Below, in pieces: positions 1 to 17,344 of a stretch of 32,365 nucleotides of DNA (positions within the stretch are counted from its first letter, which is position 1; each line of letters starts with the position of its first letter). Both the position numbers and the translations under genes were made by a program. The notes under the pieces were generated by a model. That model did not search any database. It had not been told where the DNA came from and saw only the letters and a program-made list of their open reading frames with translations. Source of the stretch: Eledone cirrhosa (lineage: Eukaryota); contig CAXHJY010001103.1 in NCBI GenBank assembly GCA_964016885.1, positions 1-32,365 of the forward strand, written 5' to 3'.

Positions 1-160
1 TACAGCTGGATGCCCTTCCTAACACCAACCTCATTTACAGTGAGTGCTGGGTGCTTTTTCGTGGCGCCTACACGTCCACTTTACAGTGTGGGCTGGGTGC
101 TTTTTTGCCGTGGCACCTCCACGACCACCTTGCGGTGGGGGGGCATATTGTTTATATGCT

Positions 161-3100
161 TCAGCATGTACCCATGGGAGGTCGGGTACCCTGTATTACT
201 GCGTGACGCCAGAAGTCACGGTCGTGTGTCATTGACTTTGAGAGGTGTAGTTGGGTAAGGTCGGCTTTTATCACCTCATCCCAAGTCATCTTGGGTCTCC
301 CCACTCCGCGGTTTCCATCAACTTCTAGTGCTCTGCACCTTTTTATGCAGCTGTCATCCTTCATACGCATCACATGTCCATACCAGCGTAACCGCCTCTC
401 CTGCACGCAGCATTTGATTCCTCTTATGCTCAGTCTCTCTCTCAATTCATTTATGCTTTGTCGTTCACGTATATTACTGTTACACATCCATCGGAGCATG
501 CAGGCTTCGTTTCTCTCTAATCTACGTAAGTCTTCCACCTTCAGCGCCCAGGTCTCACTACCATGCAACATCGCTGTTCGGATACACGCATCATACAGTC
601 TGCCTTTCATTCTGAGGGAGAAGCCTTTTGCAGCTAGCAGTGGTAGTAGTTCCCTAAACTTCTTCCATCCCGTTCTTACCCTAGTTATTGTACTTTCTGA
701 GCACCCACCTCCGTTGCTAATTCGGTCACCTAGGTAGCAGAAGCTGTCTACTGTTTCTACAGGGCCCTCCCAGAGATTGGTGGTACTTGTTTCCTGTGGC
801 TGTTTGCTTGCTGTTTCAGCACAGCTGCTGCATGTGAATCCTACATTCTTAATTAAGCTTCCTGAGATCCCGCTACATCTCTTGTGTACCCATTGTTTGC
901 ATTTGGGGCAAAGAATGGAGTTCCTACCTACACCTTTCCTACATACTGAGCAAGGCCATTTCCCTGAGGGGATCTGGGTTCTGTTTTCTCGTCTACTTAT
1001 AAGGACCTTAGTCTTTGTCATGTTGACTTTGAGGCCCTTTCTCTCTAGTCCCTGCTTCCAGGTTTGGAATTTATTCTCTAGTTCTACCATAGATTCAGCT
1101 ATGAGTGCGAGGTCATCAGCATACAGGAGTTCCCATGGGCATCCGGTCTTAAACTCCTCCGTTATTGCCTGCAGGACTATGATGAACAGGAGAGGGCTAA
1201 GAACAGAGCCCTGGTGGACCCCAACCTGTACGCTAAATTCCTCGCTATACTCATTGCCAATCCTAACTTTGCTGACTGCTCCCCTATACATGGCTTATAC
1301 CGCTTTCACAAGCCATTCATCTACTCCTAGTTTTCTAAGAGCCCACCAGATTACTGCACGTGGAACTCTGTCAAAGGCTTTCTCAAGGTCGACAAATGCC
1401 AAGTAGAGTGGCTTACTTTTAGCTAGGTACTTTTCCTGTAATTGCCTCACAAGGAAGAGCGCATCAGTGGTGCCTTTCCCTGGAACAAACCCAAATTGCA
1501 TCTCGTCTATATTCACCCGGTCCCTAATCAGCTGTGCTATAACTCTTTCTGTTACTTTCATGACCTGGTCCATCAACTTTATACCGCTATAGTTTCCTCT
1601 ATCTAGTGCATCGCCTTTACCTTTGTAGCAGTTGACAATGATGCTACTGCACCAATCTTTTGGTATGGCCCCCTCTAGTATTACCTGGTTAACGATACGT
1701 GTGGTTATAGTGTGACCTACAGACCCAGATGCCTTCAGCATCTCGGCAGCTATACCCGATGGACCGGTTGCCTTCCCTATCTTCATATCTCTGATTGCCT
1801 TACTTACTACGCTGCCGCTGACTTGTACTGCTGGTCCCTCTATAGGGTCTACGTGGGGTAGGGTCTCTTCTTCCCATGCATTCTCCTCATTTAGTAATCT
1901 ATCATAATGACTCTTCCATGCATCTTTCTTCTCAGCACTTGTGAGGGCAAGCTCACCTTTATCATTCCGGATACACTTCTCTCCAATGACATCACAACTA
2001 TCTCTGACACACTGCCTCGCAATCTTGAATACCTCCTGTTTCTGGTCCTCACGTTGTAAAACATGCTTGAATTTTCTATCCTCTGCTTCCCTCCTAGCTA
2101 AGTATACTTGTCGCCTAGCTTCCCTCTTGGTCTCTATGTAATGTACCCTGCTCCCCCCGTTCTTCCATTCTTTCCATGCCTGTCTCTTGGCCTTGACTGC
2201 TTCATCTACCTTATTGTTCCACCACCAAGTCACTCTCCTCCTGCTTGAGGTCTTACTCCAGCCACAAACCTCATCCGTCGCCTCTAGTAAGTTATTTTTT
2301 AGGAACTCCCAGTTCTCTTCTACGTTAAATGTCTCTATCTGTTCTTCTTTACTGTCGTAGGCGTTGAGTAAAATATCTTTAAATCTGTTACTGGTTGAGG
2401 GGACTTTCAGCTTCCAGATCTTTCTTCTCCAGGTTGGCCTCTGTTTCAGGGCTCGTCTAGTTCTGACCGTGAGGTCGCTGACAACTAAGCTATGTTGGGA
2501 TGTACATTCCTCACTAGGGAAGGCTTTTGTGTTTACGACCGTCCATCTGTCACGTCCTCTGATGAGGATAAAATCTAACTGACTAGAGTGCTCCCCTGAT
2601 CTATAGGTGATCAGGTGGTTGTCGGGTTTTTTAAAGTTTGTGTTACATATCGACATGTCATTGGCGTCGCAGAATTCTAGAAGTCTGAATCCTTCCTCAT
2701 TCCTTGTGCCAACTCCATGGCCTCCATGTACTCTATTGAAGCCGTCGCAGTGTTTACCTACGTGTCCGTTAAAATCTCCTGCAATGATTAGGAAGTCCTT
2801 GTCGTCTGTTAGAGCAGTAGTGTGTATTAGGGACTCGTAAAACCTATCCTTAAGTTCGTCTGGCAGCCCCGATTGGGGTGCGTAAGCTGATATTATTGTG
2901 GTAATTGTCTTATTCAGGACTAGTCTGAGTTTAATGATTCTTGCATTTACCCTGTACACTGAGATTACTTTATCTACCCACTTGTCAGCTAATAGTATAC
3001 CTACACCACCCATCCCATCGTCATTTCCCACCCAGAAAAATTTGTAGCACTGGCTTTTTCCTACAAGGACTCTAGCAGACCCTCCTCTCCATCTAGTCTC

Positions 3101-3280
3101 TTGCACACAGCATACATCAACTTCCTTTCGCTCTAGCATTTCTACGATTTCTCCTGCTCTTCCTTTCATTGAGCCTACATTGATGGTACCAACTCGGAGT
3201 TTTGGGCATTTGTCGACACTCGTAGGGGAGGGTCTCTGGGTTGGCGCTTCACGTGGGTGCTTGGTAGCTCGCAGATTCAT
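161..3280 (-). pseudogene. RTE ORF (APE endonuclease + reverse transcriptase with PHD-type insertion), 1039 codons with one in-frame stop
   Basis: EN motifs [41 protein letters not shown] motifs QFGFVPG, FVDLEKAFDRV, GVHQGSVLSPLLF, YADD, FCYLG. ORFs 1295..3280 and 161..1291 are in the same frame, separated by TAA at 1297-1295, which is CAA (Gln) in copy 3 at 15922-15924. Confidence 0.95.
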
Positions 3281-3523
3281 ATTTCATCTATTGATTCAGA
3301 GTTGCTCGTGTATTCCCAGCTCATCCATCCCTAACGGTGGGAAAATTGAGGGCTAGAAGGACAGTGGTGGTGGGGTAATGGCAGGGTGTGTTGGGATGCG
3401 CCAGAGGAGGAGAGAGTTAGTTAGGCAGGTAGTAGCAGCAGCAGCAGTGGAAATGGCATGCTAGGTTTGATTGGTCGAATAGACTATGGTGGTGTGTGGG
3501 GGTGGGGGGGAGGGAAATTGTGA

Positions 3524-6500
3524 GGTAGGAACTGAGGGTCGCATGGTAAATATCCAAGTTAATACTACATCAGTAAAATTAACAATAATAACGTCATGAA
3601 AAAAGCTACTAAGAGAAACCCTCGAAAATTTATCGCTAATACAGCAGGGAAAATTTAACGCTAATACAGCAGGGAACATCATAATATTAACGACATGAAA
3701 AAGCTACTAAGAGAAACCCTCGAAAATTTATCGCTAATACAGCAGGGAAAATTTAACGCTAATACAGCAGGGAACATCATAATATTAACGACATGAAAAA
3801 GCTACTAAGAGAAACCCTCGAAAATTTATCGCTAATACAGCAGGGAAAATTTAACGCTAATACAGCAGGGAACATCATAATATTAACGACATGAAAAAGC
3901 TACTAAGAGAAACCCTCGAAAATTTATCGCTAATACAGCAGGGAAAATTTAACGCTAATACAGCAGGGAACATCATAATATTAACGACATGAAAAAGCTA
4001 CTAAGAGAAACCCTCGAAAATTTATCGCTAATACAGCAGGGAAAATTTAACGCTAATACAGCAGGGAACATCATAATATTAACGACAATATGTAGGCTAA
4101 AATACCTTCGTAGATTAGGTGGATGGCTGGCTGGGAAAATTTGAATCAGCTCTAGTGGTACATTTTAGCAGAGAAGAATGGCAAAGTGTCTTATCTCTTC
4201 AATATTTTCAGATTGAATGAATTAGGTTAAAGACAGGGTAGTAAGCCTTAAAGAAGTGCATAGAGGGGGGGGGTAGGAACTGAGGGTCGCATGGTAAATA
4301 ACTGAGAGAGATACAATAGGATTAGAATACCGCATGGTAAATATCCAAGTTAATAAGTTAATACTACATCAGTAAAATTAACAATAATAACGTCATGAAA
4401 AAAGCTACTAAGAGAAACCCTCGAAAATTTATCGCTAATACAGCAGGGAAAATTTAACGCTAATACAGCAGGGAACATCATAATATTAACGACATGAAAA
4501 AGCTACTAAGAGAAACCCTCGAAAATTTATCGCTAATACAGCAGGGAAAATTTAACGCTAATACAGCAGGGAACATCATAATATTAACGACATGAAAAAG
4601 CTACTAAGAGAAACCCTCGAAAATTTATCGCTAATACAGCAGGGAAAATTTAACGCTAATACAGCAGGGAACATCATAATATTAACGACAATATGTAGGC
4701 TAAAATACCTTCGTAGATTAGGTGGATGGCTGGCTGGGAAAATTTGAATCAGCTCTAGTGGTACATTTTAGCAGAGAAGAATGGCAAAGTGTCTTATCTC
4801 TTCAATATTTTCAGATTGAATGAATTAGGTTAAAGACAGGGTAGTAAGCCTTAAAGAAGTGCATAGAGGGGGGGGGTAGGAACTGAGGGTCGCATGGTAA
4901 ATAACTGAGAGAGATACAATAGGATTAGAATACCGCATGGTAAATATCCAAGTTAATAAGTTAATACTACATCAGTAAAATTAACAATAATAACGTCATG
5001 AAAAAAGCTACTAAGAGAAACCCTCGAAAATTTATCGCTAATACAGCAGGGAAAATTTAACGCTAATACAGCAGGGAACATCATAATATTAACGACATGA
5101 AAAAGCTACTAAGAGAAACCCTCGAAAATTTATCGCTAATACAGCAGGGAAAATTTAACGCTAATACAGCAGGGAACATCATAATATTAACGACATGAAA
5201 AAGCTACTAAGAGAAACCCTCGAAAATTTATCGCTAATACAGCAGGGAAAATTTAACGCTAATACAGCAGGGAACATCATAATATTAACGACAATATGTA
5301 GGCTAAAATACCTTCGTAGATTAGGTGGATGGCTGGCTGGGAAAAATTTGAATCAGCTCTAGTGGTACATTTTAGCAGAGAAGAATGGCAAAGTGTCTTA
5401 TCTCTTCAATATTTTCAGATTGAATGAATTAGGTTAAAGACAGGGTAGTAAGCCTTAAAGAAGTGCATAGAGGGGGGGGGGGTAGGAACTGAGGGTCGCA
5501 TGGTAAATAACTGAGAGAGATACAATAGGATTAGAATACCGCATGGTAAATATCCAAGTTAATAAGTTAATACTACATCAGTAAAATTAACAATAATAAC
5601 GTCATGAAAAAAGCTACTAAGAGAAACCCTCGAAAATTTATCGCTAATACAGCAGGGAAAATTTAACGCTAATACAGCAGGGAACATCATAATAATAACG
5701 ACATGAAAAAGCTACTAAGAGAAACCCTCGAAAATTTATCGCTAATACAGCAGGGAAAATTTAACGCTAATACAGCAGGGAACATCATAATATTAACGAC
5801 ATGAAAAAGCTACTAAGAGAAACCCTCGAAAATTTATCGCTAATACAGCAGGGAAAATTTAACGCTAATACAGCAGGGAACATCATAATATTAACGACAT
5901 GAAAAAGCTACTAAGAGAAACCCTCGAAAATTTATCGCTAATACAGCAGGGAAAATTTAACGCTAATACAGCAGGGAACATCATAATATTAACGACAATA
6001 TGTAGGCTAAAATACCTTCGTAGATTAGGTGGATGGCTGGCTGGGAAAATTTGAATCAGCTCTAGTGGTACATTTTAGCAGAGAAGAATGGCAAAGTGTC
6101 TTATCTCTTCAATATTTTCAGATTGAATGAATTAGGTTAAAGACAGGGTAGTAAGCCTTAAAGAAGTGCATAGAGGGGGGGGTAGGAACTGAGGGTCGCA
6201 TGGTAAATAACAGAGAGATACAATAGGATTAGAATACCGCATGGTAAATATCCAAGTTAATAAGTTAATACTACATCAGTAAAATTAACAATAATAACGT
6301 CATGAAAAAAGCTACTAAGAGAAACCCTCGAAAATTTATCGCTAATACAGCAGGGAAAATTTAACGCTAATACAGCAGGGAACATCATAATATTAACGAC
6401 ATGAAAAAGCTACTAAGAGAAACCCTCGAAAATTTATCGCTAATACAGCAGGGAAAATTTAACGCTAATACAGCAGGGAACATCATAATATTAACGACAT

Positions 6501-7739
6501 GAAAAAGCTACTAAGAGAAACCCTCGAAAATTTATCGCTAATACAGCAGGGAAAATTTAACGCTAATACAGCAGGGAACATCATAATATTAACGACAATA
6601 TGTAGGCTAAAATACCTTCGTAGATTAGGTGGATGGCTGGCTGGGAAAATTTGAATCAGCTCTAGTGGTACATTTTAGCAGAGAAGAATGGCAAAGTGTC
6701 TTATCTCTTCAATATTTTCAGATTGAATGAATTAGGTTAAAGACAGGGTAGTAAGCCTTAAAGAAGTGCATAGAGGGGGGGGGGTAGGAACTGAGGGTCG
6801 CATGGTAAATAACTGAGAGAGATACAATAGGATTAGAATACCGCATGGTAAATATCCAAGTTAATAAGTTAATACTACATCAGTAAAATTAACAATAATA
6901 ACGTCATGAAAAAAGCTACTAAGAGAAACCCTCGAAAATTTATCGCTAATACAGCAGGGAAAATTTAACGCTAATACAGCAGGGAACATCATAATATTAA
7001 CGACATGAAAAAGCTACTAAGAGAAACGCTCGAAAATTTATCGCTAATACAGCAGGGAAAATTTAACGCTAATACAGCAGGGAACATCATAATATTAACG
7101 ACATGAAAAAGCTACTAAGAGAAACCCTCGAAAATTTATCGCTAATACAGCAGGGAAAATTTAACGCTAATACAGCAGGGAACATCATAATATTAACGAC
7201 ATGAAAAAGCTACTAAGAGAAACCCTCGAAAATTTATCGCTAATACAGCAGGGAAAATTTAACGCTAATACAGCAGGGAACATCATAATATTAACGACAA
7301 TATGTAGGCTAAAATACCTTCGTAGATTAGGTGGATGGCTGGCTGGGAAAATTTGAATCAGCTCTAGTGGTACATTTTAGCAGAGAAGAATGGCAAAGTG
7401 TCTTATCTCTTCAATATTTTCAGATTGAATGAATTAGGTTAAAGACAGGGTAGTAAGCCTTAAAGAAGTGCATAGAGGGGGGGGGGGGTAGGAACTGAGG
7501 GTCGCATGGTAAATAACTGAGAGAGATACAATAGGATTAGAATACCGCATGGTAAATATCCAAGTTAATAAGTTAATACTACATCAGTAAAATTAACAAT
7601 AATAACGTCATGAAAAAAGCTACTAAGAGAAACCCTCGAAAATTTATCGCTAATACAGCAGGGAAAATTTAACGCTAATACAGCAGGGAACATCATAATA
7701 TTAACGACATGAAAAAGCTACTAAGAGAAACCCTCGAAA
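3524..7739. repeat. Hierarchical tandem array: 98/99-bp monomers in blocks of 5,3,3,4,3,4,1+partial, separated by six near-identical 305-311-bp spacers
   Basis: Monomer starts at 3592,3691,3789,3887,3985 | 4391,4490,4588 | 4994,5093,5191 | 5600,5699,5797,5895 | 6298,6397,6495 | 6902,7001,7099,7197 | 7606,7705 (partial). Spacers start at 4083,4686,5289,5993,6593,7295. Each monomer holds two copies of the 25-mer GAAAATTTAWCGCTAATACAGCAGG. Confidence 0.97.
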
Positions 7740-7786
7740 TATATATATATACATACATACATATATATACATACATACATATATAT

Positions 7787-7835
<49 letters not shown>

Positions 7836-7915
7836 CATACATACATATATACATACATATAGACATACATATATATATACATACATACATACATATATAT
7901 ATATATATACATATC
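7740..7915. repeat. (TA)n/(TACA)n compound microsatellite
   Basis: Seen directly. Confidence 0.98.
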
Positions 7916-7937
7916 TACACCTCTCACAACACACACA

Positions 7938-8432
7938 CCCACATACCCACCCACTCGAAACCCCATCATTTGCCGCTACTCTCTACGCTATAGAATATGT
8001 ACGGATAGTGGCTGCAAATCCACCCATTTACCTAGGACAAAACAGTCTATCCCCACAAACAGCCACCACCATAATACATACTCTAATTTAACACCAACAC
8101 AACCACCAATAACTCAAACAAGGAATCCACAAATCTGCCGCTTTTCCCTGCGAGACAGATTGTGTTTACACCGGGATTGTCCCTTTACCCATCTCCCGGG
8201 GACCCGTCGGACAAATGAAAATAAAAATAAAAATAAAAGCAAATACAAAAACCATAACCTACATAAAAATAACCACTACCACAGTCACCAACAGTCTCCT
8301 AAACAGGAAACTTCTTCCTCTTTTTTAGCTATAATGAATCTGGCAAAAGAACTGGAAAAAAACATTCGAGCTATCACCCAGCAACACCCTCCACTATCAC
8401 ACCACTGCACAAACTCCCATTGCTGCCATTAA
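7938..8432 (+). pseudogene. C-terminal remnant of LINE ORF1 with two CCCH zinc fingers
   Basis: A stop-free frame continuous with the tracked ORF 8160..8432 reads [25 protein letters not shown] (7971-8027) and TRNPQI-CRFSLRDRLCLHRDCPFTH (8136-8192), both C-X8-C-X4-C-X3-H. No start codon; the 5' boundary is approximate. Confidence 0.75.
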
Positions 8433-11429
8433 CAAACAAACAAATTAACAACACACCAAAACAATTAAAACCATCCACTCTCGCCTCAACATTTTTGCTT
8501 AACGCCCAAGGCATCATCCCTTCCACCAATACTCAAAAATGGAAGATCAAATTCCTAGAGGACTGGGTTGATGTCCATCCAAACCACATCCCTTTCTTCG
8601 TCCTCACTGAAACCCATCTCAGCAACCTCCACTTGGAAGCCGAGGTGAAAGTGAAAAATTTCAAAGCCATCCGTGCTGATCGCGCTGGCAGAAGAAAGGG
8701 TGGGACTGCCATTTATGTCCATAATTCTTTCTCAACAGAGGCTATGAACATATTTATTAATGGATACTGCGAAGCAGTCACTGTATTCAGTCAAACCAAT
8801 AACCTAATAGTAGTTGAGCTCTATAGGCCACCCCAAACGCCTCTACCATGCTTCAATGAATGCCTCAACAGCATAAAGTGTTTCATCCAAGAGTGTCACC
8901 CTGACAACATCTTAATGATGGGGGACTTCAACCTCCCCGGAGTCGACAAACAGCCTGCCACCAGGTTCTTCTGCCTCAACCTCTGACAGGGAAGCAGTGG
9001 AATCGCTTCTTGACTTCATGGATGATTTCTTCCTGTCCCAACTGGTGCTCGAACCAACGAGGTGCCACAAAAACGTCCTAGACTTAATTTTCAGCAATCA
9101 CACTGACACTATCCACAATATTGCAGTGGAGAAAACTCTACTCTCTGATCATGACATGGTTTTCTGTGATCTGAGATTCCACCGTCCAATATACAAACCC
9201 AATGTCATCTCTCCTGTCCATCCGTTTGACGCTATGGATTTCCACAATGCAAAAGCGATCAGTCATGATCTTGCACATGTCGACTGGTTCTTCACGCACA
9301 CTCACACACCCACTAACATCAAAAAGTCCTGGCAGACATTTGTGGACACTGTTACAAACATATGTGCAAAACACACCCCATTAACAACTATAAACAAATC
9401 TAAGAGCAGAATCCCTAGAAATAGAAAAATGCTCATCAGGAAAATTAAGAGAACTAACAAAAAAATCAACAAGCTGAAATACAGTCAGCAGCAACTCACC
9501 ATTAAAAAACATAACCTCCAAAACAATATGATGTCTATCATCAACAATCAGAGAAGAGCTGAAGAGGCCTGGGCCATTGAGAAGATCAAACTCAATCCCA
9601 AAGTGTTCTTTTCATTTGCAAAAAAACACAAAATCACTGGCTCTACTGTTGGCCCTCTAATTGATGAAAATGGCACTCTTCAAGACAATGCTAAAACCAT
9701 GGGTGAGATACTGCAGAAACAATACTGCTCTGTTTTCAGCAATCCTGATATGGCCGATCTGGGCTGTATCGGCGATGTTACTCCCCATTACACCTTATCG
9801 AACATAACGTTTGGCGCCCCTGATGTCTTAGCGGCAATAAAGGAAATCAAGCATAATTCAGCAGTAGGTTCCCAATAGGTACCCTGTCTTGAAGGCGTGT
9901 CAACACCAACTTGCATCTCCTCTTGCCAATCTGTGGCGGAACTCACTGGATGCTGGATATGTGCCAGAAAACCTTCTATCCCAGTCTGTTGTCCCAGTTT
10001 TCAAAAAAGGAAACAAATCCCTTGCCGTGAATTACCGTCCAATCTCACTCACCTCTCATATCATTAACGTATTTGAGAGAGTGGTGAGATCGCGAATGAC
10101 TCACTTCCTTGAGAGTAACAATATGCTGAACTCCAACCAGCATGGATTCCGTAATGGAAGGGATTGCCTGACGCAGCTACTGCATCACTTTGATGACATT
10201 TTGAGAGCCTTGGGAGAGGGTTCCAACACTGATGTTATCTACCTTGATTTCAGCAAGGCCTTTGACAGGGTTGATCACAACATTCTACTGAGAAAGCTGT
10301 CCAATATTGGTGTCACTGGAAAGCTGCTGCAGTGGATCAAGAGCTTCCTGTCAAACAGAACCCAACATGTTGTAGTCGAAGGAGTCAAATCCAGCCCAGC
10401 CAAAGTCAGTAGTGGGGTCCCACAAGGCACTGTATTGGGCCCACTTCTCATCATCATCTATATTAATGACATCACTGACATCATCAAACACAGCAACATT
10501 AGAATTTTCGCTGATGATTCCAAGCTCCAAAAGGTCATCAATGGCGTGGATGACCGGATAAGCCTTCAGTCAGACCTACTGGCTGTTACCCAATGGGCGG
10601 TAAAGAACAACATGTTACTGAACGAAGACAAATTCGAACTGATTCACTTTGGAAAAGAGGATGCTCTGAAACTCCCGTACTCCCTTCCCTCCGGTGAAAC
10701 TCTCGTGGCATCTAACAACATCAGAGACTTGGGAGTAACCGTGGACAGCAACATAAGCTGGGCCACGCATATAAGCAGCAAAGTTGACATGGCCCGCAGA
10801 ATTTGTTCCTGGATCCTCAGAACCTTCCAGTCGAGAGATTCCCACACCATTATCCTTCTCTTCTCCACTTTTGCCCGACCACACCTTGAATACTGTTATC
10901 CACTGTGGTCTCCCCACACAAAACAAAGTATCATGAAACTTGAAGCTCCCCAAAGGGCAATCACGAAAAAGATAGATGGCATGTCAGACCTTGACTACTG
11001 GGGGTCGACTAGAAAAGCTGAAACTTTACTCACTCCAACGTCGCCGTGAGCGTTATATTATCTGCATGATGTGGAAAAATGTTTCATCAGCACTGCCCAA
11101 ATGATGTTGGCATCACCTTCAAAATACACCCAAGGCTTGGGCCCCGTGCTATCCGTCCCAAACAAAAATCTAAATCGCAACTCATAACAACAATACGGCA
11201 CAATTATTTCACCTCAATTGGCCCTGCTCTCTTCAACATCACACCAGGACACGTCAAAACAGAAACTGACCACACAAAATTCAAGAAGACTTTGGCCAAA
11301 TTCCTCCAAGTAATCCCGGACAAACAACACCCACACCCGGATATGTCTCCGCAAACAGTAATTCCCTTCTCAAATGGGCCATGGTGCCCAAATCCTGAAT
11401 TGAAAGACTTCGCCAGATGGTGCTATTAA
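8420..11429 (+). pseudogene. LINE ORF2 (APE endonuclease + RT) broken by several frameshifts
   Basis: EN motifs LLNAQG, LTETHL, GGTAIYV, YRPP, GDFNLP, PTR..LDLIF, SDH. RT motifs FKKG..NYRPISLTS, QHGFR, YLDFSKAFD, SGVPQGTVLGP, FADD, RPHLEY..WSP. Pieces 8420..8986, 8997..9878, 9889..11049 and 11079..11429 change frame at each junction. Confidence 0.93.
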
Positions 11430-11476
11430 GTTAGACATGGCCTGGGCCAATACTGGCCAAAGTTATTCAAAGTTAT

Positions 11477-11517
11477 ATATATATATATTACATATATATA
11501 TATATATATATTACATA
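11477..11517. repeat. (TA)n with TATTACATA interruptions
   Basis: Seen directly between two tail-to-tail LINEs. Confidence 0.95.
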
Positions 11518-12546
11518 TCATCATCACCGTTTTACATCCGTTCTTCCACGCTAGCATGGGTTAGACAGGTTGTCCTGTTGTGGGCAGTGTCTGGTCGGCT
11601 GACCATGCTTGCTCATACAGGAACTGATTTGGCTTGATTTCTACAGCTGGATGCCTTTCCTAACACCAACCTCATTTACAGTGAGTGCTGGGTGCTTTTT
11701 CGTGGCGCCTACACGTCCACTTTACAGTGTGGGCTGGGTGCTTTTTTGCCGTGGCACCTCCACGACCACCTTGCAGTGGGGGTGTGGGGGCATATTGTCT
11801 ATATGCTTCAGCTTGTACCCATGGGAGGTCGGGTACTCTGTATTACTGCGTGACGCCAGAAGTCACGGTCGTGTGTCATTGTCTTTGAGAGGTGTAATTG
11901 GGTAAGGTCGGCTTTTATCACCTCATCCCAGGTCATCTTGGGTCTCCCCACTCCGCAGTTTCCATCAACATCTAGTGCTCTGCACCTTTTTATGCAGCTG
12001 TCATCCTTCATACGCATCACATGTCCATACCAACGCAACCGCCTCTCCTGCACACAGCATTTGATTCCTCTTATGCTCAGTCTCTCTCTCAATTCATTTA
12101 TGCTTTGTCGTTCACGTATATTACTGTTACACATCCATCGGAGCATGCAGGCTTCGTTTCTCTCTAATCTACGTAAGTCTTCCACCTTCAGCGCCCAGGT
12201 CTCACTACCATGCAGCATCGCCGTTCCGATACATGTATCATACAGTCTGCCTTTCATTCAGAGGGAGAAGCCTTTTGCAGCTAGCAGTGGTAGTAGTTCC
12301 CTAAACTTCTTCCATCCCGTTCTTACCCTAGTTATTGTACTTTCTGAACACCCACCTCCGCTGCTAATTCGGTCACCTAGGTAGCAGAAGCTGTCAACTG
12401 TTTCTACAGGGCCCTCCCAGAGATTGGTGGTACTTGTTTCCTGTGGCTGTTTGCTGCTTGCTGTCCCAGCACAGCTGCTGCATGTGAAGTCTACATTCTT
12501 AATTAAGCTTCCTGAGATCCCGCTACATCTCTTGTGTACCCATTGT
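11518..12546 (-). mobile_element. RTE LINE copy 2, 5'-truncated inside the PHD finger
   Basis: Colinear with 1..895 plus a complete 3' end with a (TGA)3 tail at 11518-11526. Nonsense AGA>TGA at 12260-12258 and one extra codon (TASSKQ versus TASKQ). Confidence 0.96.
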
Positions 12547-13623
<1,077 letters not shown>

Positions 13624-14668
13624 TTTCTGGGTGGGAAATGACGATGGGATGGGTGGTGTAGGTATACTACTAGCTGACAAGTGGGTAGATAAAGTAATCT
13701 CAGTGTACAGGGTAAATGCAAGAATCATTAAACTCAGACTAGTCCTGAATAAGACAATTACCACAATAATATCAGCTTACGCACCCCAATCGGGGCTGCC
13801 AGACGAACTTAAGGATAGGTTTTACGAGTCCCTAATACACACTACTGCTCTAACAGACGACAAGGACTTCCTAATCATTGCAGGAGATTTTAACGGACAC
13901 GTAGGTAAACACTGCGACGGCTTCAATAGAGTACATGGAGGCCATGGAGTTGGCACAAGGAATGAGGAAGGATTCAGACTTCTAGAATTCTGCGACGCCA
14001 ATGACATGTCGATATGTAACACAAACTTTAAAAAACCCGACAACCACCTGATCACCTATAGATCAGGGGAGCACTCTAGTCAGTTAGATTTTATCCTCAT
14101 CAGAGGACGTGACAGATGGACGGTCGTAAACACAAAAGCCTTCCCTAGTGAGGAATGTACATCCCAACATAGCTTAGTTGTCAGCGACCTCACGGTCAGA
14201 ACTAGACGAGCCCTGAAACAGAGGCCAACCTGGAGAAGAAAGATCTGGAAGCTGAAAGTCCCCTCAACCAGTAACAGATTTAAAGATATTTTACTCAACG
14301 CCTACGACAGTAAAGAAGAACAGATAGAGACATTTAACGTAGAAGAGAACTGGGAGTTCCTAAAAAATAACTTACTAGAGGCGACGGATGAGGTTTGTGG
14401 CTGGAGTAAGACCTCAAGCAGGAGGAGAGTGACTTGGTGGTGGAACAATAAGGTAGATGAAGCAGTCAAGGCCAAGAGACAGGCATGGAAAGAATGGAAG
14501 AGCGGGGGGAGCAGGGTACATTACATAGAGACCAAGAGGGAAGCTAGGCGACAAGTATACTTAGCTAGGAGGGAAGCAGAGGATAGAAAATTCAAGAATG
14601 TTTTACAACGTGAGGACCAGAAACAGGAGGTATTCAAGATTGCGAGGCAGTGTGTCAGAGATAGTTGT

Positions 14669-15220
14669 TTAGCAGTATTAGTTATAGATGTTATCGCCAC
14701 ATTAGCAGGGTGGCAGAATCAGTGGTCGTTAGTTGCCAGTGTGGTAAGTGATAGTATCCTCGTTGGATTATCTTGTTGACATAGACGTGAGGGAAGGTCC
14801 CTCGATCTATTTACCATCTATTTACAATATTCCTTTCGTCAGGTCGCCAATTCCAGCAGCATGGATTAAAGATGTCATTGAGACAAGAGTAACATAATAA
14901 CGACTTCAACCGCAGTAATTAGAGATGAAATGTTTGTTTATTTATATGGTTGAAGTTACAGATAAAAAGAGGTTACATTAGGGAATGTGCCATTGCGCCG
15001 TTAGGCCGGCGAGGCTAGTGGTGCAATATCTCACTGTTACATTATGCGTGTTGCTGGCTCGAAGTTTCTGGTACAAGAGCGAGATTCTTCAAATCTTCGC
15101 GGGGAATTTCTTCCTCAGGGCGCGTAGGGATACATCCTCTTCTACTGGCGCTGATTGGCTGAACTGAGCCAAATCACGCACAGAGAATGTATGTGAGCCT
15201 GCGGAATGTAGGTCACTACA
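14669..15220 (-). mobile_element. 552-bp nested insertion, solo-LTR-like
   Basis: The empty site in copy 1 is GATAGTTGTGATG; here GTTGT flanks both sides (14664-14668, 15221-15225). The minus strand begins TGTAGTG and carries CCAAT (15158-15154) and then AATAAA (14942-14937). No recognisable protein coding. The insertion is certain; the LTR identity is inferred. Confidence 0.7.
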
Positions 15221-17075
15221 GTTGTGATGTCATTGGAGAGAAGTGTATCCGGAATGATAAAGGTGAGCTTGCCCTCACAAGTGCTGAGAAGAAAGATACA
15301 TGGAAGAGTCATTATGATAGATTACTAAATGAGGAGAATGCATGGGAAGAAGAGACCCTACCCCATGTAGACCCTATAGAGGGACCAGCAGTACAAGTCA
15401 GCGGCAGCGTAGTAAGTAAGGCAATCAGAGATATGAAGATGGGGAAGGCAACCGGTCCATCGGGTATAGCTGCCGAGATGCTGAAGGCATCTGGGTCTGT
15501 AGGTCACACTATAACCACACGTATCGTTAACCAGGTAATACTAGAAGGGGCCATACCAAAAGACTGGTGCAGTAGCATCATTGTCAACTGCTACAAAGGT
15601 AAAGGCGATGCACTAGATAGAGGAAACTATAGAGGTATAAAGTTGATGGACCAGGTCATGAAAGTAACAGAAAGAGTTATAGCACAGCTGATTAGGGACC
15701 GGGTGAATATAGACGAGATGCAATTTGGGTTTGTACCAGGGAGAGGCACCACTGATGCCCTCTTCCTTGTTAGGCAATTACAGGAAAAGTACCTAGCTAA
15801 AAGTAAGCCACTCTACTTGGCATTTGTCGACCTTGAGAAAGCCTTTGACAGAGTTCCACGTGCAGTAATCTGGTGGGCTCTTAGAAAACTAGGAGTAGAT
15901 GAATGGCTTGTGAAAGCGGTACAAGCCATGTATAGGGGAGCAGTCAGCAAAGTTAGGATTAGCAATGAGTATAGCGAGGAATTTAGCGTACAGGTTGGGG
16001 TCCACCAGGGCTCTGTTCTTAGCCCTCTCCTGTTCATCATAGTCCTGCAGGCAATAACGGAGGAGTTTAAGACCGGATGCCCATGGGAACTCCTGTATGC
16101 TGATGACCTCGCACTCATAGCTGAATCTATGGTAGAACTAGAGAATAAATTCCAAACCTGGAAGCAGGGACTAGAGAGAAAGAGCCTCAAAGTCAACATG
16201 ACAAAGACTAAGGTCCTTGTAAGTAGACGAGAAAACAGAACCCAGATCCCCTCAGGGAAATGGCCTTGCTCAGTATGTAGGAAAGGTGTAGGTAGGAACT
16301 CCATTCTCAGCCCCAAATTGAAACAATGGGTACACAAGAGATGTAGCGGGATCTCAGGAAGCTTAATTAAGAATGTAGGATTCACATGCAGCAGCTGTGC
16401 TGAAACAGCAAGAAAACAGCCACAGGAAACAAGTACCACCAATCTCTGGGAGGGCCCTGTAGAAACAGTAGACAGCTTCTGCTACCTAGGTGACCGAATT
16501 AGCAACGGAGGTGGGTGCTCAGAAAGTACAATAACTAGGGTAAGAACGGGATGGAAGAAGTTTAGGGAACTACTACCACTGCTAGCTGCAAAAGGCTTCT
16601 CCCTCAGAATGAAAGGCAGACTGTATGATGCGTGTATCCGAACAGCGATGTTGCATGGTAGTGAGACCTGGGCGCTGAAGGTGGAAGACTTACGTAGATT
16701 AGAGAGAAACGAAGCCTGCATGCTCCGATGGATGTGTAACAGTAATATACGTGAACGACAAAGCATAAAGGAATTGAGAGACTGAGCATAAGAGGAATCA
16801 AATGCTGCGTGCAGGAGAGGTGGTTACGCTGGTATGGACATGTGATGCGTATGAAGGATGACAGCTGCATAAAAAGGTGCAGAGCACTACAAGTTGATGG
16901 AAACCGCGGAGTGGGGAGACCCAAGATGACTGGGGATGAGGTGATAAAAGCCGACCTTACCCAACTACACCTCTCAAAGACAATGACACACGACCGTGAC
17001 TTCTGGCGTCACGCAGTAATACAGGGTACCCGACCTCCCATGGGTACATGCTGAAGCATATAAACAATATGCCCC

Positions 17076-17180
17076 CACTGCAAGGTGGTCGTGGAGGTGC
17101 CACGGCAAAAAAGCACCCAGCCCACACTGTAAAGTGGACGTGTAGGCGCCACGAAAAAGCACCCAGCACTCACTGTAAAT
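17076..17180 (+). repeat. Internal 46-49-bp tandem motif in the RTE 3' UTR (about 2.2 copies)
   Basis: CACTG..GTGG.CGTG.AGG.GCCACG..AAAAAGCACCCAGC starts at 17076 and 17125, with a partial copy at 17171. Also present in copies 1 and 2. Confidence 0.85.
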
Positions 17181-17344
17181 GAGGTTGGTGTTAGGAAGGG
17201 CATCCAGCTGTAGAAATCAAGCCAGATCAGTTCCTGTATGAGCAAGGCATGGTCAGCCGACCAGACACTGCCCACAACAGGACAACCCGTCTAACCCATG
17301 CTAGCGTGGAAGAACGGATGTAAAACGGTGATGATGATGATGAT

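Follow-up and report, generated by a model that had tools for sequence, protein, structure and literature searches.

A variable-length tandem array with a predicted spacer promoter forms the 5' end of an abundant RTE-type LINE in Eledone cirrhosa

The window analysed here, a whole small unplaced contig of 32,365 nucleotides from Eledone cirrhosa (CAXHJY010001103.1), carries on its minus strand an RTE-type LINE whose 5' end is an array of 98-bp monomers divided by spacers of about 308 bp. The array belongs to the LINE at loci across the genome, and as a whole it is best explained as a self-renewing array whose spacers hold a predicted promoter, a reading to which we give a probability of about 0.6. 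Since a predicted start signal lies in each larger unit, the promoter is probably retained and rebuilt by the LINE itself, in the manner of mouse LINE-1.

Results

Architecture of the element at the locus

The features of the element are as follows.

1..160, minus strand: 3' UTR of the LINE, from which the contig lacks the last 135 bp or so; other copies run on for about that length into a (TGA)n tail
161..3280, minus strand: single ORF of 1,039 codons with AP endonuclease, reverse transcriptase and PHD finger (ORF and domain search)
3281..3594, minus strand: unique 5' UTR (tether), in which 3524-3594 is a shortened spacer-end copy (sequence comparison)
3595..4085, minus strand: monomer block 1, five monomers of 98/99 bp that each hold a 25-bp pair (repeat analysis)
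4086..4393, minus strand: spacer 1, 308 bp, with a G-run and an internal 13-bp direct repeat
4187..4220, minus strand: predicted core promoter of spacer 1, with Inr-like TCATTC (A+1 = 4218), G at +24 and DPE-like AGACA at +28 to +32
4394..4688, minus strand: monomer block 2, 3 monomers
4689..4996, minus strand: spacer 2
4997..5291, minus strand: monomer block 3, 3 monomers
5292..5602, minus strand: spacer 3
5603..5995, minus strand: monomer block 4, 4 monomers, substitution at 5695
5996..6300, minus strand: spacer 4
6301..6595, minus strand: monomer block 5, 3 monomers
6596..6904, minus strand: spacer 5
6905..7297, minus strand: monomer block 6, 4 monomers, substitution at 7028
7298..7608, minus strand: spacer 6
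A+1 at 4821, 5425, 6128, 6728 and 7430, minus strand: predicted core promoters of spacers 2-6
7609..7739, minus strand: last full monomer and a 32-bp partial one, the 5' truncation point of this copy
7740..7914, strand not applicable: (TA/TACA)n microsatellite, the likely insertion target

The ORF of the window copy is interrupted by one in-frame stop (1295-1297), and an open frame of at least 1,030 aa was found in 68 of 93 near-full bodies. No ORF of at least 100 aa was found on the minus strand from the start of this ORF to the end of the array, and there is no ORF1. The domain order recurs in many of the 120 relatives listed, at about 50% identity; a PDB search with the protein returned distant matches to reverse transcriptases and PHD fingers only. 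A single ORF with AP endonuclease and reverse transcriptase, together with a simple-repeat 3' tail, places the LINE as RTE-type, a name that rests on this architecture. The 3' end and the (TGA)n tail are common to nearly all copies fetched in the first two sets (L035 lacked the anchor). The family is very young and abundant. Most sampled bodies are more than 99% identical, and 5'-complete candidate copies number on the order of a thousand.

Our recount agrees with the three levels described in an earlier note on this DNA, namely 25-bp pairs (detected by TRF) inside 98-bp monomers that are grouped by six spacers. The 24 monomer starts represent 23 full monomers and one 32-bp partial (7708-7739), in blocks of 5/3/3/4/3/4/1, a count that is read from the assembled contig with no single spanning long read behind it. 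The monomer that opens each block measures 99 bp owing to an extra A, the others 98 bp, and the spacers measure 308, 308, 311, 305, 309 and 311 bp. The variation that the note had reported between units was also seen, with spacer G-runs of 9, 9, 11, 8, 10 and 12 in order (G8-G12) and monomer substitutions at 5695 and 7028. The same holds for its two finer observations: the UTR at 3524-3594 (to 3591 in the note) is a spacer end that lacks the segment between two CGCATGGTAAATA repeats as well as one AGTTAATA copy, and the array breaks off at base 32 of a monomer, directly abutting the microsatellite at 7740. Older copies retain a longer spacer-type end at the 3524-3594 position of the tether. 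The true repeat unit is a spacer plus n monomers, with n = 1 in older subfamilies. Monomers have 35% GC and 4 CpG, and the two spacer halves 37% GC with 1 and 3 CpG.

The array belongs to the LINE across the genome

According to the earlier note, the array could be a 5' end of variable copy number, to be checked by mapping its units in the genome, or a nascent satellite. Mapping places the units 5' of the RTE with varying copy number. In the first 182 Mb of one chromosome, all 34 spacer loci were joined to the LINE, as were 17 of 17 in a separate set, counts that cover arrays with at least one spacer; none of these loci was an array independent of a mobile element. When copies were anchored on the UTR, 33 of 34 continued into monomers; among 34 anchored on the ORF, 20 had monomers, 14 ended before the first monomer, and none revealed an alternative shared 5' end. 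A 27-base spacer motif has 1,811 exact matches genome-wide, and 83 of the 99 other loci retrieved have monomers 5' of the LINE, for the most part on contigs of chromosome scale. Units contain a spacer and 1-19 monomers, and the longest array exceeds 7 kb (L026). Array units also occur in public short-read contigs. Of the findings that the note had named as speaking against an element-borne array, none was seen where they could be tested. A nascent satellite at this locus is unsupported because hundreds of loci share the design; on the strength of this linkage, the array is the normal variable-length 5' end of the LINE family and not a local satellite. In a sister family of 75% identity, no long array was found among 20 copies, and in 2 of the 20 the UTR-proximal segment recurs as a partial second copy, at 350 and 382 bp.

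The microsatellite seen at the window insertion is typical: it flanks both sides in 42 of the 74 copies with both ends. Target-site duplications of at least 6 bases were found in 3 of 23 plain-flank copies, compared with 6 of 506 null pairs, and would be masked in 51 of the 74 copies because a microsatellite flank is present there. In the consulted part of PMC2887409, the target-site duplication of the RTE clade is given as 6-12 bp. No allele of the window insertion was found via its distal flank, a repeat with 722 candidates. Loci L088 and L089 appear to be a single insertion that was duplicated.

Arrays are remodelled faster than element bodies

In eleven copies whose 3,084-bp bodies are identical, the array measures anything from 480 to >6,095 bp, and the arrays of 24 copies with no private substitution span 108 to >6,095 bp. 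A one-base marker that splits the family is uniform in 44 of 47 multi-spacer arrays; the three others (L065, L012 and L086) are mosaics with units typical of other loci. Unit variants are inherited with the body, and arrays remodel faster than one base changes in 3 kb. Arrays longer than 2.5 kb were seen in 7 of 20 cases, whereas truncation at the rate observed within the UTR would leave 0.5. At 9 loci the ORF-proximal UTR-type end has been copied again at outer positions (20 times in L040, 14 in L049), and three re-copy junctions read by eye have 0-2 bases of homology. By these unit markers, arrays seem to regrow from a single unit around the time of insertion, likely by template switching.

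The same integral promoter array might instead grow at the DNA level after insertion, by unequal sister exchange, replication slippage or gene conversion, with long donors favoured because their daughters still have a promoter. Minisatellites mutate far faster than single bases, and nested markers with periods of 2 to 4 units (L046, L052, L108, L041 and L026) imply successive segment duplications. Array singletons are also fewer than a static array would hold (40 against 52 expected, a 24% shortfall, P 0.046). Both routes have been proposed for mouse L1, as far as the consulted parts of 10.1101/2022.08.06.500894 and PMC6454616 go. However, older bodies do not carry longer arrays (rho -0.24, p 0.056), and the copies with no private substitution already span 108 to >6,095 bp. 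The mosaics, too, hold units from other loci, which conversion could also yield. We regard growth after insertion as unlikely, though it deserves to be taken seriously.

A predicted core promoter in the spacer

Every spacer contains the Inr, the G at +24 and the DPE at exact spacing, with A+1 at spacer position 133. The letters resemble the Drosophila Inr/DPE consensus with its G at +24, and the motif was searched only after the cluster of 5' ends described below had been seen. Shuffled spacers held Inr and DPE in 34 of 3,000 cases and in 6 of 3,000 with the G at +24; a looser Inr and DPE definition matched 216 of 3,000. The spacing is kept in a spacer of only 76% identity (L084), and the strict Inr and DPE pair is absent from the 7 longest of the 20 sister-family copies. 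RNA sampling comprised one small-share run with a single 174-base contig, from which no inference is drawn; the low-depth pieces of runs X6 and X7 were left out. These motifs suggest that the core promoter likely lies in the spacer and not in the 98-bp monomer. Of the higher-order monomer promoter proposed in the earlier note, the array as an integral part of the RTE stands; the promoter-like signal and the end cluster moved to the 308-bp spacer.

Element ends, called from trimmed BLAST alignments, accumulate at spacer positions 120-135, with 12 of 80 in these 16 positions against 2.06 expected; the remaining 68 lie elsewhere. The discovery set gave 8 of 47 (reached in 1 of 1,000 simulations after scan correction) and new loci 4 of 33 (p 0.015; with a weighting for the last two bases, 0.022), a significance that depends on adding 13 spacer-anchored loci. 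ORF-anchored loci alone, the test fixed beforehand, gave 2 of 20 against 0.53 expected, which is not significant (p 0.098). L023 and L064 end precisely at A+1, an inverted piece in L051 begins at the Inr, and one public short-read contig departs from the element at 4218 into (TA)n. Neither L051 nor L110 (136) was scored as a cluster match. Outside the cluster count are also L084, called at 111 though its diverged spacer reaches about 160, and L026, called at 57 though 12 further monomer bases follow. Copies ending before the first monomer and three whose arrays exceed the fetched stretch (L040, L046 and L052) were left out of the end counts.

It is improbable that the array is a mere by-product of a slippage-prone reverse transcriptase that reiterates the 5' UTR, with repeats that do nothing as promoters and transcription from the tether or by host read-through. 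This would fit the scatter of most ends and the monomer, with its 35% GC, 4 CpG and no structure. Amplification also takes place regardless of the motif: the Inr is missing from the 20 units of L040 and the 14 of L049, which multiplied as readily, and a spacer with a mutated Inr is repeated three times in L052. Against it stand the ends at the Inr/DPE site, which exceed expectation five- to six-fold and in several cases fall exactly at +1, the motif spacing preserved in the diverged L084 spacer, and the scattered ends within the UTR, where no cluster is seen.

A self-cleaving HDV-like ribozyme in each unit would likewise cluster 5' ends at its cleavage site, and RTE is listed among the clades with 5' ribozymes in the consulted part of PMC3774820. 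This is very improbable here: an Rfam search to E 10 gave three chance matches and no ribozyme, the folding of the 133 bases that follow +1 is no more stable than that of shuffled sequence (z -0.27), and a loose HDV-like descriptor gave AU/GU-rich partial matches in monomers only. Finally, an assembly expansion or one-off satellite, suggested by a small unplaced contig in which no spanning read was seen, is refuted for the family and scarcely credible at this locus, given the genome-wide motif matches, the monomers at other loci, the units in short-read contigs and the locus-specific markers that run along whole arrays.

Discussion

In the self-renewing array that we favour, transcription would start at the Inr/DPE site of one spacer. 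Because the start lies inside the spacer, a daughter would keep the core promoter and the downstream units and lose those upstream, and random 5' truncation would remove more. This loss would be balanced whenever the reverse transcriptase slips, or jumps to a homologous unit of its template RNA or of a sibling RNA, and copies that unit anew. The 98-bp monomers would have been amplified more recently, within the unit, and are candidate factor-binding modules. We hold only tentatively the stronger proposal that reverse transcriptase routinely rebuilds a multi-kb two-level Inr/DPE stack at each insertion, by re-copying 5' units and switching between sibling RNAs, a solution reached independently of rodent L1.

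These results suggest that stacked promoters also arose outside L1, on another type of core promoter, and that predicted promoter arrays of kb scale were recently scattered by the hundreds through the Eledone cirrhosa genome, where short-read assemblies would have missed them. If the stronger proposal is true, promoter renewal is part of retrotransposition and can be read across hundreds of near-identical copies. The regain of lost monomer units in mouse L1 is still called unclear in the consulted part of PMC6454616. As the Eledone copies are near-identical, marked and two-level, comparisons of donors with daughters or of alleles could separate renewal by reverse transcription from exchange at the DNA level.

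Comparison with known systems

The element shares with RTE-clade LINEs (RTE-1, JAM1, Bov-B, SR2 and octopus RTE-2_OV) one ORF of about 1,000-1,100 aa with AP endonuclease and reverse transcriptase, and a simple-repeat 3' tail; in the consulted parts of PMC2887409 and PMC9115989, however, their 5' UTRs are described as short and unique (276 bp; about 600 nt). Compared with these, the Eledone family has a PHD finger after the reverse transcriptase, a multi-kb tandem 5' array, a (TA)n site preference and mostly no clear target-site duplication. Among the papers searched, we found none that describes such an array for an RTE.

To our knowledge, Drosophila LINEs have one promoter per element, whereas the Eledone LINE has a tandem stack. 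The consulted part of PMC2377424 describes DPE promoters in Drosophila LINEs, and jockey, Doc, F, G and I, as well as Penelope, resemble the Eledone element in having Inr and DPE within the transcribed 5' end. Because of this position, a daughter of such a LINE keeps the core promoter. The A-modules of Dictyostelium TRE5-A can be tandem, and we know of no higher-order unit there. Its 200-bp 5' module has promoter activity (PMC3159450, in part), but TRE5-A is a two-ORF element that targets tRNA genes.

The closest likeness is to mouse L1Md (A, Tf and Gf, with monomers of about 200 bp) and rat L1 (about 650 bp). According to the consulted parts of PMC5381506, PMC6454616 and 10.1101/2022.08.06.500894, these link a varying number of tandem units to the ORF through a unique tether of about 250-310 bp; some of their 5' ends gather at a site within the unit, arrays can be mosaic, and renewal is needed to make up for shortening. 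Most young mouse L1 have 2-5 monomers; Eledone arrays reach more than 7 kb. L1 has ORF1, ORF2 and a poly(A) tail, whereas the Eledone element has a single ORF and a (TGA)n tail. Its unit is two-level (a spacer plus 1-19 monomers) and AT-rich (35-37% GC) with no CpG island, and an Inr/DPE-type motif would take the place of YY1. By analogy, the array would work like mouse L1 monomers in an element that is not an L1, with promoter activity and additivity of the monomers as predictions.

An integral 5' array of a young LINE

The window is one entire contig of a 3.0-Gb genome and contains the following features.

Features of the window (coordinates, strand, description)
161-3280, minus strand: ORF of the LINE, encoding AP endonuclease, RT and PHD domains and having the array on its 5' side
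3281-3594, minus strand: unique 5' UTR of the LINE
3595-7739: array of 98-bp monomers in blocks split by spacers
7915-11475, plus strand: another, degenerate LINE in which pieces of endonuclease and RT lie in shifted frames
11517-12552 (minus), 13621-14668 (minus) and 15220-17340 (plus): three further fragments of the RTE family of the first LINE, at 96-99.6% identity
26127-32365: (TA/CA)-rich array with a 26-bp period, about 240 copies, occupying the contig end

The earlier note had described a 5' UTR fused to a nested array, and parsing bore this out: as assembled, six spacers of 305-311 bp divide 23 full monomers into blocks of 5/3/3/4/3/4/1, with a partial monomer of 32 bp in addition. Its observations that units differ in their G-runs (8-12) and by substitutions at 5695 and 7028, and that UTR and array are homologous, were reproduced, positions 3524-3594 corresponding to the end of a spacer that lacks the stretch separating two 13-bp direct repeats as well as one 8-bp copy. 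The ORF of the window copy is interrupted by one in-frame stop; in 68 of 93 near-full bodies, the frame stays open for 1,030 aa or more. The PHD finger (821-952, minus strand; residues 115-158 of the C-terminal ORF piece) lies C-terminal to the RT domain and is also found in many relatives; it could read chromatin in target choice. Copies terminate 3' in a (TGA)n tail, and the 3' UTR (window 1-160; also loci L119 and L133) contains a 47-49-bp tandem repeat found in the element family and its sisters.

Genome searches yielded 1,345 candidates with a spacer query, 1,204 with the UTR and 1,130 with the ORF start, and the best 40 of each list were all 100% identical; the genome contains 1,811 matches to a 27-base spacer motif. 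Besides the window, 99 further loci of the LINE family were sampled. As the earlier note had proposed, the spacers sit 5' of this RTE: all 17 spacer-anchored loci met the element at the identical junction, and on one chromosome the first 100 matches of the spacer motif formed 34 loci, each attached to the element. UTR-anchored copies ran on into monomers in 33 of 34 cases. ORF-anchored copies did so in 20 of 34, the other 14 ending before the first monomer at unrelated flank, and no alternative shared 5' end was found among these 34. At L098, the array is broken by a younger copy. For the design as such, the suspicion of an assembly expansion can be set aside, since linked copies at many loci share the design and its units are present in public short-read contigs. 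These contigs covered monomer-spacer-monomer in 30/30 bins for one sample (three runs) and in 26/30 for a second, the samples possibly not being independent of the assembly. Copy number proved as variable as anticipated: 11 copies without a single substitution between them across 3,084 bp have array lengths ranging from 480 to more than 6,095 bp and widely differing block patterns. We conclude, with a probability of about 97%, that the array is an integral and rapidly changing 5' part of a young LINE of RTE type.

Layering and inheritance of the array

In the most diverged copies, whose bodies share 97.6-99.2% identity with that of the window, each unit has one monomer, in some cases with only one 25-mer, and the UTR retains the full spacer end, while the first block of the youngest copies has mostly 2 and at most 19 monomers. 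This difference argues that a spacer and a monomer together (about 400 bp) form the basic unit and that the block of monomers was added recently as a second layer. L078, L079 and L086, whose bodies are 0-1 substitutions apart, have spacer markers in common; L079 and L086 also have marked monomers in common, in related but different orders. Unit variants track the body tree, which indicates that the array is transmitted along with the element.

In the public sequencing runs X2-X5, the spacer variant of the older one-monomer subfamily made up about 60-100% of depth at window 4182, depth being no copy number. Among sampled units of the assembled genome, the young spacer type accounted for 173 of 242 and the older variant for a minority, in a sample that favoured young copies. 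Individuals or populations may differ in the multi-monomer subfamily. Runs of two other organisms (X6, X7) contained 99%-identical stretches of the element at low depth, for which prey, contamination and transfer are all possible sources.

A predicted core promoter in the spacer

In the sense direction, each spacer contains TCATTC, whose A+1 lies at spacer position 133, followed by G at +24 and by AGACA spanning +28 to +32, in agreement with the consensus letters of Inr, G+24 and DPE. Within the window, the strict Inr/DPE motif occurs only in the six minus-strand spacers; shuffled units contained it in 34 of 3,000 cases (6 with G+24; 216 under a looser definition). The spacing is preserved in a 76%-identical spacer at L084. 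DPE-type internal promoters are present in Drosophila LINEs, according to the accessible text of PMC2377424. Rfam matching, descriptor and folding tests found no ribozyme at the element's 5' end.

At the discovery loci, 8 of 47 array-internal 5' ends fell at spacer positions 120-135, where 1.11 were expected (1 of 1,000 simulations was as extreme over all windows). The prediction of this cluster was fixed before new loci were obtained. The new ORF-anchored loci alone placed 2 of 20 ends there (0.53 expected; p 0.098); with 13 spacer-anchored loci included, the count was 4 of 33 (0.96 expected; p 0.015, or 0.022 once the last two bases are weighted for). Pooled, 12 of 80 ends lay in the cluster vs 2.06 expected, the remaining 68 falling outside it, and 36 monomer ends (window included) were scattered along the monomer. 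L023 and L064 end precisely at +1, an inverted piece at L051 starts there, and one short-read contig departs from the element at 4218, the A+1 of the first spacer, into (TA)n. We consider it likely that the spacer contains a promoter. Truncation profiles have been put to the same use in mouse L1, as the available part of PMC6454616 describes.

Renewal of the array

Of 47 arrays with at least two spacers, 44 were uniform and three mosaic for a one-base marker dividing the family, so most arrays derive from one unit, with foreign units occasional. The UTR-type end, native only beside the ORF, reappears further out in 9 loci, and three junctions inspected by eye (L040, L049, L026) had 0-2 bases of homology. 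Older bodies did not carry longer arrays (rho -0.24, p 0.056, 66 loci), array singletons numbered 40 vs 52 expected for arrays static since insertion, and 7 of 20 arrays exceeded 2.5 kb vs 0.5 predicted from the UTR truncation rate. Arrays would grow at or near insertion, most simply by RT slippage with template switching. Growth by DNA-level exchange would suit markers recurring at periods of 2-4 units, which point to several duplication steps. The shortfall of array singletons, borderline significant (P 0.046), also counts against growth at insertion, as does the overstatement of age by private body changes. We nevertheless rank exchange below RT renewal, which is favoured but unproven. For mouse L1, both routes have been proposed and the matter is unresolved in the accessible text of 10.1101/2022.08.06.500894 and PMC6454616.

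Amplification is blind to the Inr/DPE motif (L040, L049, L052), so a link between array and promoter would arise by selection among donors. At L022:7478-8778, the spacer breaks off at about position 125 and gives way to the ORF of a diverged sibling, followed by the latter's array; 5' pieces are inverted at L020 and L051, and L056 carries a short terminal duplication. These structures all fit a jump-prone RT.

Insertion sites and neighbouring repeats

Microsatellites, mostly (TA)n or similar, flank 42 of 74 copies with both ends on both sides and 51 on either side, a strong tendency among these copies. RTE insertion is reported as not sequence-specific in the available part of PMC2887409. Insertions into minisatellites were seen at L011, L028, L044 and L061, and a sister-family copy has an unrelated minisatellite nearby (40-bp unit, about 99 copies; L123:3081-7000). 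The degenerate LINE, whose 5' part has 722 genome candidates at ~98% identity, faces away from the array across a (TA)n tract. Pieces 13621-14668 and 15220-17212, in opposite orientation, meet at about element position 1,995 with ~550 bp between them and look like an inverted or rearranged copy.

Comparison with known systems

The LINE is assigned to RTE by architecture, as given in the accessible text of PMC2887409. The octopus element RTE-2_OV has UTRs of ~600 nt, tandem structure not being mentioned in the available text (PMC9115989); that of a 2026 O. vulgaris repeat annotation (PMC13282606) does not mention promoter, UTR or satellite. No RTE element with a tandem promoter array at its 5' end was found in the accessible literature. 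In the sister family (75% identity), 2 of 20 copies carry part of the UTR a second time, weakly hinting at an older origin of the tandem design. With one ORF, a (TGA)n tail and AT-rich units, the element does not belong to rodent L1, but in its mode of working its array resembles the rodent L1 monomer promoter as described in the available part of PMC5381506.
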